Shown: positions 21,900 to 51,147 of the stretch, in pieces
Layout: each line of letters starts with the position of its first letter
Position numbering within the stretch: the first letter of the stretch is position 1
Assembly: GCA_017307275.1 (NCBI GenBank)
Contig: JAFKFK010000026.1
Span: 6,134 to 70,133 of the forward strand
Reading direction: 5' to 3'
Length of the DNA: 64,000 bases
Source of the DNA: Alphaproteobacteria bacterium
GTDB lineage: Bacteria > Pseudomonadota > Alphaproteobacteria > Reyranellales > Reyranellaceae
Notes under the pieces: generated by a model
Told to the model about the DNA's origin: nothing
Seen by the model: the letters and a program-made list of their open reading frames with translations, nothing else
The model's database searches: none
Program-made: the position numbers and the translations under genes

Positions 21900-23481
21900 G
21901 TTCGCAAACCGAGCGGCCGCTACCGGATCCCGGCCAACGCGAATCGCAGACCGCCAGCACTTCGCCCCGGGTACCGTAGAGCGCACTGGTCCAGGTGCCG
22001 TCGTCCACTGGGTTCATCACCATGGTTGCAAAGTCGCGCAACCCCACGACAAAGGCATCGCTGCGGTCGAGGTCGGGCACGCGGACCGGTCGCTTGGGAT
22101 GTTCGGGCGAAGGCACTGGCTGGACGTGCGACAGTTCCATGCCGCCCGTGCCGACGGCGAGATGCGGCGGCTGGCGACTGTCGAAGCCGATCGCCTGGAA
22201 GCGGTGCATGTGGCCCGCGATGACCACTTTGACATGCGGCGGCACACCATGCGGGAAGACGCGGTGCACGGCTTCGCGTTGGGTTTCGTTGACGAAGCCA
22301 TAGGGCGTCGGGCTGATCGGGCCACCCTTGTCGCGCTTCACGACACCCCAGATCGGCCGATGCGTGACCAGCCACGTCGGCGTGCGATCCTCGGCCAGCA
22401 GGCGCGCGACCTCGCGATACTGCCCAAGATAGAGGTCGAGATTGAAGAGGACGGCATCGGCGGCATTCGCGGAATCGACTGCGATGAAGTTGAGCTTCCC
22501 GAGCTTGAGGCGAAACGGCGGGTTGGTGATCGTCGGGAAGACCTGACCGGCGAAAGGAAGCGCCGGCGGCTTGGGCCAGGCGCCGAGTTGCCAACCGGGC
22601 GGCGTTTGCGGCGGGCACTCCTGTTGCTTCGCGCCCGGTCCCAGCAACGTCGAGTTGGCATCGAGGAGAAAGAACCAGCCGGGACCGGCGCGGCTGCATA
22701 GTTCGTGATTGCCGCGGCTCAGCAGCCACGGCGCGACGGGCAGCAAGCGGGCCGCAGGCAGGAAGAAGTCATCGCGCCAGTACGCCCATTTGTCGGGGAT
22801 CGGACTGCCTTCCATGTTCTGGCTCCAGTATGCGGCGCCAATCGGCAGGTCCGGCTCATCCTCGTCGTCGAGGTCGCCAGTGTCGTAGAAGGTCACGGTC
22901 ATATCGCGGCCGTAGCCCGAGACACGGGCCGGCACGACCATGCTCCCGGGGGTTCCGCGATAGTTGTAATCGCCGACATGGATGATCAGGTCGGGCCGGT
23001 TCCCGACCTCTTCGTCCGACAACGTGCCGAATGGCCAGACATTCGCGAAGCCGTCGCCCGTGCAGGGTTGCGGTTTGCGCTTGGTGTCGCCGCGGCACCC
23101 GCTGTCGCCCACGAGCACGACCCGACGCGGCGTGCCGAGTGAAACGGTCGGCAGATCGATGCGCCGATCCCCAAGGAACACACTCGCCGCCTCGCCGATG
23201 GGGTAGCGCGCCTCGCAAACCAGCACATCGTCGAACTGACCGCCTGCGGGACGTTGGCGCGGCATCATGGTGATGGAGGTGCCGCCGTGGGAAGAGCGCA
23301 AGGCCGGGCACGCCGTCGCCCGCTCGGCGACGCTGCGGACCATCGGAACAGGCTTGCCGTCCGTGCCTTCCCCGAACAGCACGAAGGCGAAGAATGGAGG
23401 CGCAGTCCGCTGCGCCTGAACGGCGCCATTCCCGACGAGCAAAGAGAGAACGCACGCAAGGACGAAGCAGACAAAGCGCAT
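21892..23481 (-). CDS. Secreted calcineurin-like metallophosphoesterase
   Basis: Signal peptide; motifs GDSG, HVGDYNY, GNHE, THRP and GHMH. Confidence 0.85.
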   Translation of the reverse strand: MRFVCFVLACVLSLLVGNGAVQAQRTAPPFFAFVLFGEGTDGKPVPMVRSVAERATACPALRSSHGGTSITMMPRQRPAGGQFDDVLVCEARYPIGEAASVFLGDRRIDLPTVSLGTPRRVVLVGDSGCRGDTKRKPQPCTGDGFANVWPFGTLSDEEVGNRPDLIIHVGDYNYRGTPGSMVVPARVSGYGRDMTVTFYDTGDLDDEDEPDLPIGAAYWSQNMEGSPIPDKWAYWRDDFFLPAARLLPVAPWLLSRGNHELCSRAGPGWFFLLDANSTLLGPGAKQQECPPQTPPGWQLGAWPKPPALPFAGQVFPTITNPPFRLKLGKLNFIAVDSANAADAVLFNLDLYLGQYREVARLLAEDRTPTWLVTHRPIWGVVKRDKGGPISPTPYGFVNETQREAVHRVFPHGVPPHVKVVIAGHMHRFQAIGFDSRQPPHLAVGTGGMELSHVQPVPSPEHPKRPVRVPDLDRSDAFVVGLRDFATMVMNPVDDGTWTSALYGTRGEVLAVCDSRWPGSGSGRSVCELK

Positions 23482-23557
23482 AGCGAAAGACTCCGAGACA
23501 TTGCCGCGATGGCAAAGCTCACGCAGGATGTCAGAAAAGAACGATGAGGAAAGCGCG

Positions 23558-24463
23558 ATGAGTCAGGCGTCAGAAGACAAGCGAGACGATGCGCGGAAAA
23601 ACGAGACCGTTTCCTACATGGAACGCACGCGACACTACTATCGCGCGCTGGGATACGAGCAGGACTATGTCTGGGCGCGCCTCGACGATGTGCCATTCGC
23701 CCGGCTCGACAAGCCTCTCGCCGCCGTTCGCCTAGGACTCGTCACAACGGCAAGCCCGCCCGGTCTCAGCAATCGCGACACGCGCGGCGTGCGTCGCGTC
23801 TGGTCGGGCGACATCGACCCACCGCCTGCCACGCTGTTCACCAGCAACCTCGCCTGGGACAAGGAATCGACGCACACGGAGGATCGCGAAAGCTATCTGC
23901 CGATCGAGACCGCATCGGCGCTGGCACGCGAAGGCCGCTTTGCAACCCTCGCATCACGCTTCCACGGCGTGCCGACCGAATACAGCCAGCGCAAGACCTT
24001 GTCCGAGGATGCCCCCGAGGTCCTGGCACGGCTGCGGGCGGACGGCGCTGACGCCGCGCTTCTCTGCGCGCTTTGACCCGTCTGCCACCAAACCGTGAGT
24101 TTGGTCGCCCGACACCTCGAAGCCAACGGACTGCCGACCGTGATCGTGGGCTCGGCCCGCGATATCGTTGAATACTGTGGCGTGCCACGTTTCCTCTTCA
24201 CCGACTTCCCGCTCGGCAATCCATGCGGCCTTCCCTGGGACCGCACCATGCAACGCGCGATCGTCGATCAGGCGCTCGGCCTCCTGGAAACCTCGGACCG
24301 TCCGCGCACGACGGTGCAGGCGCCCTTCACCTGGAAGGCAGACGATCCCGGTTGGCGCAGCCGCTATGGCCGTGTCGATCCAGCGGAGCGCGAACGTCTC
24401 CTGGCCGCCGGCCGCGAACGCCGCGAACACCAGGCCGCGGCCAGCACTTTGAAGAAAGGCTGA
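23558..24463 (+). CDS. PrdB/GrdB-like reductase selenoprotein B family protein, predicted Sec at codon 173 (TGA 24074-24076)
   Basis: ORFs 23501-24076 and 24095-24463 are in the same frame. Read-through gives ALLCAL-U-PVCHQTVSLVARHLEANGLPTV...PRFLFTDFPLGNP, a UxxC motif typical of PrdB/GrdB-like proteins. SD GAGGA precedes ATG 23558. Confidence 0.8.
24077..24110 (+). promoter_or_regulatory. Candidate bacterial SECIS element
   Basis: Perfect 7-bp stem ACCAAAC/GTTTGGT (24087-24093, 24099-24105). The loop CGTGA starts 17 nt after the UGA and has G at its second position. Confidence 0.7.
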
Positions 24464-24469
24464 CGGCGA

Positions 24470-24685
24470 TCAGGAATTCCAGAGCTGCGGTGAGCCGCGC
24501 ACGACGACGCGGCGGCCCATCGCGGTGATCGCGGGTCCATTGTCTGTCACGATGGCGAGTTCGGATGCGACGAGAGTCCGGACCGCATTGTTATCAAGCA
24601 GGCGATGATCGCGGTTCCAGCCGCCGATTGCTTTCAAGGTTTCCCATTCACTGGGACTGAGTCGGAGATCGTTTTCCGTATCCAT
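24470..24685 (-). CDS. Small hypothetical protein (71 aa)
   Basis: SD GGAGG upstream; fills an otherwise empty gap; ends in RGSPQLWNS. Confidence 0.6.
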   Translation of the reverse strand: MDTENDLRLSPSEWETLKAIGGWNRDHRLLDNNAVRTLVASELAIVTDNGPAITAMGRRVVVRGSPQLWNS

Positions 24686-24821
24686 GCTGCCTCCGATGCA
24701 CTGGGGGCAGATCGTTTACTCGCCAAACGTGACAGATCGGCGACCGGCCTGGATTTGTCACAGCCACAAATCGGAAACACGCACGGCCCGAGGCTGTCCC
24801 AGGACAACAGCGGCAACGCTG

Positions 24822-50729: not shown

Positions 50730-50758
50730 TTCAAAAACGCTTCGGAAGCGCCTATATA
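50730..50758 (+). promoter_or_regulatory. Sigma70 promoter of ssrA
   Basis: TTCAAA-N17-TATATA (CCTATAT, the alphaproteobacterial pattern). Confidence 0.6.
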
Positions 50759-50764
50759 GGGTTT

Positions 50765-51060
50765 GTCGGGAAACCGACTATGGCGATAAACGCCGCGTGG
50801 CATAAGCGTTTCGGACCCGGGGGCAGTACCCGGCGCCTCCACCATTTCCCTCCACCCATGGGAGTATCCCGGACGGTGGAGTCGATGGGGGCGAACCAGG
50901 ATCGACGAGCGTGGTAAAGGCGCGGTTTTTGCCCGGTATGGTTCCGCCGTGACGGGCCATTCACAAGTGCTAACGATAACACCGTTACACTCGCTGCTGC
51001 CGCCTAAACAGCGGACGTAAGCGCGGTCCGGGGGGCACCGGGCAACAGAAGCCCCCCACT
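50765..51060 (+). ncRNA. ssrA: Circularly permuted two-piece tmRNA; tag (A)ANDNTVTLAAAA
   Basis: Acceptor piece ends ...GGCAGTACCCGGCGCCTCCACCA at 50844. Intervening hairpin 50845-50886. The tRNA-like 5' end GGGGGCG at 50887 pairs with CGCCTCC, giving G3-U70. Tag ORF 50969-51007. The outer ends are approximate. Confidence 0.93.
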
Positions 51061-51147
51061 TTCCTTCTCCTCATTTGCCCGCTATTGGCATCGTTGACTC
51101 TCCCGCGACGCGGGCCGATGCTTTTTTCTGAAATTTTCCGACAGGCC

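Follow-up and report, generated by a model that had tools for sequence, protein, structure and literature searches.

An in-frame UGA codon probably read as selenocysteine in an orphan PrdB-like gene of a Reyranella bacterium

The 64,000-nucleotide (nt) stretch of DNA analysed here, which we call the window (contig JAFKFK010000026.1, positions 6,134 to 70,133), contains two plus-strand open reading frames (ORFs), 23501..24076 and 24095..24463, that lie in the same frame with only the TGA triplet at 24074–24076 between them. Does this triplet terminate a gene, or does it specify selenocysteine (Sec) within a single longer gene, and what kind of enzyme would such a gene encode? The original prediction had joined the two ORFs and proposed a Sec enzyme whose UGA is recoded with the help of a selenocysteine insertion sequence (SECIS). 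Translation confirmed that they form one frame: starting from the ATG codon at 23558, the coding sequence of the predicted orphan PrdB-like selenoprotein (23558..24463, plus strand) comprises 301 codons, reads ...D-A-A-L-L-C-A-L-U173-P-V-C176-H-Q-T-V-S-L-V-A-R... across the UGA, and ends at the TGA stop codon at 24461–24463. The proposed recoding is supported by the sel genes of the source genome, a conserved TGA, a covarying hairpin and contigs from other studies, and we put the probability that the UGA at 24074–24076 (codon 173, motif L-U-P-V-C-H-Q) encodes selenocysteine at about 0.92.

Conservation of the UGA and the selenium machinery

Homologues of the joined protein were collected through a six-frame search of 60 related genomes and a named-locus scan covering one genome per species. 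The scan placed the host in the genus Reyranella, R. massiliensis 521 carrying an orthologue that is 89% identical, in keeping with the alphaproteobacterial origin suggested at the outset. The six-frame search revealed that approximately 30 same-genus genomes, most of which also contain a second, TGA-bearing paralogue of about 50% identity, have an orthologue (63–92% identity) whose frame is interrupted by a single TGA, and in all 30 of the same-genus orthologue loci that were fetched the TGA occupied the same column. At this Sec column, the 80 named loci, drawn from four orders, carried TGA (60 loci), TGC (13) or TGT (7), while 17 of the 20 paralogue loci carried TGA and the remainder a Cys codon. 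Outside Reyranella, TGA forms were found in metagenome-assembled genomes (MAGs) of Burkholderiales/Betaproteobacteria, Hyphomicrobiaceae and Acetobacteraceae. U173 aligns with the first Cys of the C-P-V-C motif in homologues of about 291 amino acids (aa), and the protein is equally conserved on either side of the TGA.

These comparisons bear directly on the proposal that the TGA is a nonsense mutation (TGC or TGT to TGA in a pseudogene) or a sequencing or assembly error, next to a coincidental hairpin. The many homologues, mainly from Bradyrhizobium, that have Cys at the column would fit such an origin; however, the identical TGA column recurs in 107 loci from independent assemblies, and the protein is conserved to the same degree before and after it. 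Moreover, positions 24074–24076 are matched without differences by contigs from three public RNA sequencing (RNA-seq) runs and by a contig from a separate study's bioreactor metagenome, one of the RNA-seq contigs corresponding to 23552–24687 and covering the whole frame, also without differences. Because of the conserved TGA column and the RNA and DNA contigs that carry the TGA, a sequencing error and a private nonsense mutation are excluded. The original prediction had itself raised a sequencing error at 24076 and a Cys codon in close relatives as possible objections: the same TGA is present in the independent contigs, and the close relatives have TGA and keep the hairpin. Perfect-match transcripts from positions 23300–24700 were also observed in small RNA-seq libraries filed under another organism (runs X1-X3, X5 and X17), which indicates that the Reyranella bacterium either contaminates the cultures of that organism or is associated with them.

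The original prediction had further proposed to look for selA, selB, selC (tRNA-Sec) and selD, and all four are present in the source genome, with profile scores of 556 (selA), 457 (selB), 75 (tRNA-Sec) and 287 bits (selD), each above its cut-off. The first three are clustered on contig C29, and selD is located on C30. The selD gene (G000:C30:295781-296704; locus L011:274-2505, plus strand) encodes a 743-aa fusion, the N-terminal half of which resembles a pyridine-nucleotide-disulfide oxidoreductase by eye, and the C-terminal half of which is SelD, uninterrupted by any in-frame stop and with R-C-G-G-C-G-A-K-V as a Cys-type active site. A few kb from the selA/selB/tRNA-Sec cluster there is a second selenoprotein gene (G000:C29:35000-39500, minus strand), which encodes an FdnG-type formate dehydrogenase alpha subunit with a twin-arginine translocation (Tat) signal; its in-frame TGA, near C29:37467, falls within ...Q-A-R-I-U-H-G-P-T-V-A-S-L, and the GU-containing loop of its SECIS begins 19 nt past the UGA, that of the window gene 17 nt past it.

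The distribution of selA follows that of the Sec forms. Within the genus, selA was detected in 40 of 41 genomes and in all 25 high-quality ones; outside the genus, it was detected in 12 of 14 genomes with a Sec form versus 2 of 14 with a Cys form (Fisher p = 4e-4), and in none of seven Bradyrhizobium isolates.

A covarying hairpin downstream of the UGA

The candidate SECIS element (24084..24108, plus strand) was delimited from its fold, the covariation of its pairs and its presence in Sec forms. Its arms, ACCAAAC (24087–24093) and GTTTGGT (24099–24105), form a 7-bp upper stem capped by the loop CGTGA (24094–24098), below which lie a C-C mismatch and then two lower pairs (24084–24085 with 24107–24108). 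Counted from the A of the TGA, the stem begins after 10 nt and the loop after 17 nt, and these coordinates agree with the perfect 7-bp hairpin originally described. The GTG at 24095, annotated as the start of the second ORF, is situated inside the loop, as had also been pointed out, and the ORF 24095..24463 (plus strand) is spurious, being in reality codons 180–301 of the selenoprotein gene.

Taken alone, the window hairpin is not beyond chance, and its significance comes from comparison. The TGA-bearing loci all retain at least six of the seven stem pairs together with the identical loop CGTGA (107 of 107), and 102 of them retain all seven pairs. The hairpin is present in only 2 of the 23 Cys-codon loci (Fisher p ~3e-22, for loci that are not phylogenetically independent), and the loops of the Cys forms vary (CGUAA, CAUCA, GCUCA and others). 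Among 63 distinct Sec-form sequences, the pair 30–40 is G-C in 39, A-U in 23 and G-U in one, its variants being CAA/UUG and CAG/CUG, both synonymous, and the pair 27–43 is C-G in 57, U-A in five and U-G in one; the two pairs under the C-C mismatch are never unpaired, the lower one being C-G or U-G, and the stem cells of the alignment are paired in 93% of cases versus 25–37% in slid registers. Two stem pairs thereby show compensatory double changes, and the covariation score was reached by none of 500 shuffles. The alignment of homologues that the original prediction had called for has in this way revealed a hairpin that is both conserved and covarying.

The coding sequence bears the same imprint. 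Sec forms always encode the peptide T/S-V-S-L, with the rare AGU (about 6.5% of the Ser codons counted over long open frames genome-wide) as the Ser codon in 105 of 107 loci; the Cys forms use AGC for this Ser and encode varied peptides (TISL, TMSL, TSTL, TLSM). The SECIS RNA thus appears to constrain both the peptide T-V-S-L and its codon choice, and the comparative evidence supports the assignment of the window hairpin as a SECIS. One Cys form (TGT), at locus L066:4001-4828 in a Bradyrhizobium sp. MAG (DATGGY010000090.1) whose genome lacks selA, retains a perfect 7-bp hairpin with the CGUGA loop. Such a hairpin is expected shortly after a Sec-to-Cys change, and this one looks like a 'fossil' SECIS left by a recent replacement.

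The direction of change was examined in a maximum-likelihood tree of 111 sequences from which the Sec column had been removed. Only three Sec/Cys changes are needed on this tree (shuffled mean ~29; none of 500 shuffles as low), and Sec is found to either side of the root, which separates the two paralogue groups, so that Sec looks to be the ancestral state, followed by three Sec-to-Cys replacements. The derived Cys groups are a Bradyrhizobium-type clade (29 rows, support 99), Dankookia and a small Reyranella paralogue clade. The source genome itself carries one Sec and one Cys paralogue: its second copy (G000:C2:66142-66927, minus strand; locus L151) is a Cys form that belongs to the small Reyranella clade just named, V-P-N-C-P-V-C-H-Q-T-S-T-L, 46% identical to the window protein and devoid of the hairpin. 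For a nonsense mutation or an error, an apparently ancestral Sec is as hard to accommodate as a hairpin and rare codons that are kept only in TGA forms, and we regard that explanation as exceedingly improbable, even though the hairpin of the window gene folds unremarkably by itself.

A different possibility is that translation mostly stops at the UGA after 172 aa, or that a near-cognate tRNA (Trp or Cys) reads through it, the hairpin acting in pausing or attenuation. This possibility is favoured by the low efficiency and the selenium dependence that Sec insertion generally shows, and by a hairpin without a match in Rfam. Against it, selA is found together with the TGA forms, the Cys forms have the first Cys of a CxxC motif at the homologous position, and the invariant GU-containing loop lies at a distance from the UGA like that in the SECIS of the genome's own formate dehydrogenase. 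Furthermore, the sequence after the UGA is strongly conserved, including the invariant C176-H-Q-T and GNPCG, which requires in-frame translation of the region beyond the UGA. Termination or near-cognate decoding consequently retains only a small share of the probability.

Selenocysteine remains the preferred reading of the UGA, and several observations weigh against it. The single-sequence fold of the hairpin has a minimum free energy of -12.9 kcal/mol and z = -1.2, with 23 of 200 shuffles folding equally well, and an Rfam search of positions 23900–24300 at a permissive E-value returned no matching family. The contrast of 107 with 23 loci overstates independence, since there are only about three independent Sec/Cys transitions and not 130 independent observations. 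Two Sec-form MAGs were without detected selA, both of them small and possibly incomplete. Finally, the actual insertion of Sec into the protein is something that we infer from the sequence comparisons.

The predicted protein, its relatives and its neighbourhood

The start codon is most plausibly the ATG at 23558. A Shine-Dalgarno-like element, GAGGAAAG (23546..23553, plus strand), read from the sequence, has a GAGGA core ending 7 nt 5' of this ATG; residues 1–20 are 88–92% conserved in the closest Reyranella orthologues, and the matches start at query residue 1. The codon for C176 (24083..24085, plus strand) is invariant in the 111-sequence alignment, and by analogy with the UxxC motif of the PrdB and GrdB families (PMC1088965, Table 3) C176 is presumed to be the resolving Cys of a UxxC pair. 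The predicted tryptic peptide spanning Sec is LLCAL-U-PVCHQTVSLVAR (in full, LLCALUPVCHQTVSLVAR). A CxxUxxC centre using the Cys three residues before Sec, to which the original prediction had drawn attention, was considered and rejected: only 31 of 77 Sec forms have a Cys there, the position being otherwise S, V, T, A, Y, F or L, and this Cys is probably not catalytic.

To which family does the protein belong? Its best match is the NCBIfam family TIGR04483 (PrdB), with an E-value of 3e-21 over residues 87–261 versus positions 62–236 of the 238-position profile, and GrdF, GrdB and GrdH match at ~1e-6. About 3,000 relatives were found in the protein database; the best full-length ones (~291 aa, 64–72% identical, mostly from Bradyrhizobium) are named 'glycine reductase' or 'D-proline reductase PrdB' and have Cys in place of the UGA (L-C-P-L-C-P-V-C-H-Q-T). 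Both paralogue groups share the invariant residues U/C173-P-V-C176-H-Q-T, D109, S143, R185, E188, D202 and R211 and the motif F-x-D-x-P-L-G. An AlphaFold2 (AF2) model based on the 111-sequence alignment predicts an alpha/beta fold with high confidence (predicted local distance difference test, pLDDT, 91.4; predicted template-modelling score, pTM, 0.88), a 15-sequence alignment having given an unusable model (pLDDT 57). In the larger-alignment model, U173 would be located at the junction of strand 166–170 and helix 174–189. A strand-to-helix junction is the usual position of redox-active CxxC and UxxC centres.

A genuine B subunit of D-proline, glycine, sarcosine or betaine reductase could in principle have these properties, its partners (PrdA/GrdE, GrdA, GrdC/D) being encoded elsewhere or in the missing 8% of an assembly that is 92% complete; the identity of the best-matching families and the names given to the homologues point that way. 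However, the protein scores 75.9 bits against the curated PrdB cut-off of 300 and 26.3 bits against the cut-off of 65.45 for the GrdB subfamily (TIGR01918), and the GrdF, GrdB and GrdH matches are likewise under their cut-offs. No match to PF09338 (PrdA/GrdE) or PF04723 (GrdA) was found in the genome, at the completeness given above and with control genomes that are without these families. In addition, no neighbour is conserved beyond a subclade across the 80 orthologue loci, and the hosts, aerobic Proteobacteria of soil and water, are not known to have a Stickland metabolism. A reductase subunit of this kind is thus very unlikely. The original label 'PrdB/GrdB-like' stands as far as homology to PrdB is concerned but not as family membership, for the profile scores indicate a PrdB homologue outside the curated PrdB and GrdB families; the accompanying idea of a stand-alone, non-Stickland protein is favoured by the genome-wide absence of prdA, grdE and grdA matches (the controls being silent) and by the lack of a conserved neighbour, from which a protein without partner may be deduced. 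Because the scores are far under the cut-offs, no PrdA, GrdE or GrdA was found and no neighbour is conserved, the window protein would be an orphan PrdB-like UxxC redox selenoenzyme and not a proline or glycine reductase.

We propose that the UGA at 24074–24076 would be decoded by the host's own SelA, SelB, tRNA-Sec and SelD, recruited by the SECIS within the coding region. By analogy with PrdB and GrdB (reviewed in PMC13188914), the selenolate of U173 could then attack a substrate carbon, a selenenyl-sulfide would form between U173 and C176, and a cellular dithiol would re-reduce the enzyme, the cycle running without a pyruvoyl partner of the PrdA/GrdE type. The same scores under the PrdB, GrdF, GrdB and GrdH cut-offs that speak against a true reductase subunit also weaken this analogy, from which the whole catalytic cycle is drawn. 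Furthermore, Pfam gave no match to the joined protein at E <= 0.01, GRDB (PF07355) included, no solved structure resembling the AF2 model was found, and a sequence search of the PDB returned no match at E <= 1.

Hints on possible substrates come from relatives and not from the window gene itself. In the paralogue group (loci L132–L151, ~46–50% identical), which in other Reyranella is mostly of the Sec form with the same hairpin, the next gene on the same strand encodes a family-III coenzyme A (CoA)-transferase (PF02515, ~397 aa) in 15 of 20 loci; in 13 of 20, a gene for a family-5 solute-binding protein lies divergently upstream. Fusions with a C-terminal PrdB-like domain were also observed, the N-terminal part being of the AMP-binding (acyl-CoA synthetase) type in P0124 (514 aa) and P0125 (805 aa) and a Ser/Thr protein kinase in P0167 (480 aa). 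The paralogue CoA-transferase and the AMP-binding fusions suggest CoA-activated or adenylated carboxylates as substrates, and we tentatively raise the possibility, which we hold to be less probable than its opposite, that the orphan clade (~290–300 aa, L-U-PVCHQT) is a separate, PrdA-independent and ancestrally Sec-dependent family that reduces such compounds. Tandem PrdB-like pairs, ~47% and ~30% identical to the window protein and with one in-frame TGA each, occur at L142, L143 and L144 (G017:C5, G005:C9 and G019:C62) and also in G022:C199; a gene for a TctC-type binding protein is close by in L142 and L144.

The immediate neighbours of the window gene are those originally described: a divergent calcineurin-like phosphoesterase gene upstream (PF00149, minus strand) and a convergent 71-aa ORF downstream (24470–24685, minus strand). 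This flanking arrangement is common only to the closest relatives, and the most recurrent neighbours of the orthologue group encode a TctC-type binding protein (22 of 80 loci) and a flavin adenine dinucleotide (FAD)-binding oxidoreductase (17 of 80). The 71-aa ORF, which lacks Cys and matched nothing in Pfam, is 72–99% conserved among the five closest relatives and is probably a real small protein. A 97-aa plus-strand ORF (23254–23547) was discounted, being a shadow frame of the phosphoesterase gene on the minus strand, and a promoter and terminator scan was uninformative. Elsewhere in the window, ARAGORN identified a permuted (two-piece) transfer-messenger RNA of the alphaproteobacterial type (50752–51098, plus strand) with the tag peptide ANDNTVTLAAAA.

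Comparison with known systems

The locus has practical consequences for annotation, as standard gene callers split or truncate the gene. Among the best 150 cluster representatives from a library of 1.8 billion proteins, 27 end at query residues 170–172 and 24 begin at residues 175–181, so that 51 of 150 are halves cut at the Sec codon. Hundreds of records could be repaired by a simple rule, a TGA followed by CCN-GTN-TGY-CAY-CAR-ACC-GTG-AGT-YTG. The locus also offers a well-controlled example of a SECIS that dictates codon choice and peptide (T-V-S-L), of an ancestral Sec with three Sec-to-Cys replacements tracking the loss of selA, and of a Sec copy and a Cys copy in one genome. The associations of its relatives with CoA-transferases and AMP-ligases sharpen the question of what role a PrdA-less PrdB homologue plays in aerobic Proteobacteria; our literature searches (PrdB-like proteins, PrdB in proteobacteria, Reyranella selenocysteine) found no functional study of orphan PrdB-like members.

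With respect to its RNA signal, the window gene resembles E. coli fdhF and fdnG, in which a hairpin in the coding region directly past the UGA also carries a G-U in its apical loop. The minimal fdhF element reportedly has its upper stem 11 nt from the UGA (Liu et al. 1998), versus 10 nt in the window gene. The two signals differ in sequence, and the window hairpin has no bulged U in the stem and has a 5-nt loop, CGUGA. Its geometry is similar to that of the SECIS of the genome's own formate dehydrogenase, and its binding by SelB is putative.

The resemblance to GrdB, GrdF and GrdH (TIGR01918, PF07355) consists of weak homology (E ~1e-6 to the C-terminal 140 residues) and of a Sec that opens the UxxC motif. 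GrdB proteins, in contrast, are of ~430 aa with UxxCxxC (PMC13188914) and work with GrdA, GrdE and GrdC/D, while the window protein falls under every cut-off and GrdA and GrdE were not found. Closer is PrdB of D-proline reductase (TIGR04483), known from Acetoanaerobium sticklandii and Clostridioides difficile (Kabisch et al. 1999, cited in PMC1088965), with which the window protein shares homology over residues 87–261, Sec in UxxC and a size of ~26–33 kDa. Unlike clostridial PrdB, it is extended by ~85 residues at the N-terminus and also has a C-terminal helix, no PrdA pyruvoyl partner was found in its genome, it lies in no prd operon and its host is aerobic.

The closest parallel is provided by environmental sequences. 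In the oxic Sargasso Sea, a 'proline reductase PrdB' with UxxC ranked third in abundance among selenoprotein families, being represented by 42 Sec genes (Zhang, Fomenko & Gladyshev 2005, PMC1088965), and Global Ocean Sampling (GOS) data contained 235 Sec and 110 Cys forms of PrdB (Zhang & Gladyshev 2008, PMC2398784). A 2006 genome survey listed 'proline reductase' selenoproteins in non-Stickland Deltaproteobacteria (PMC1794560), and reviews of 2022 and 2026 file such proteins under D-proline reductase, TIGR04483. The selenoprotein that the original prediction called hidden is accordingly hidden from gene callers but not from the literature, in which catalogues have since 2005 included UxxC selenoproteins of the PrdB type from aerobic habitats. 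The window protein is like this environmental family in having Sec first in UxxC, homology to PrdB, a SECIS whose small apical loop contains a G, members of Sec as well as of Cys form, and aerobic bacterial hosts (PMC1088965, Tables 1–3; PMC2398784, Table 2); unlike it, the window protein does not match pfam07355, which was assigned there. The published counts and motifs suggest that both may belong to the same subfamily. The window gene adds one member to the selenoprotein family catalogued in 2005 and 2008, and if the orphan clade were indeed a separate family, an uncharacterised enzyme would stand behind the 'PrdB' that is one of the most abundant selenoproteins in oxic waters and soils, with the window gene as a partner-less member.

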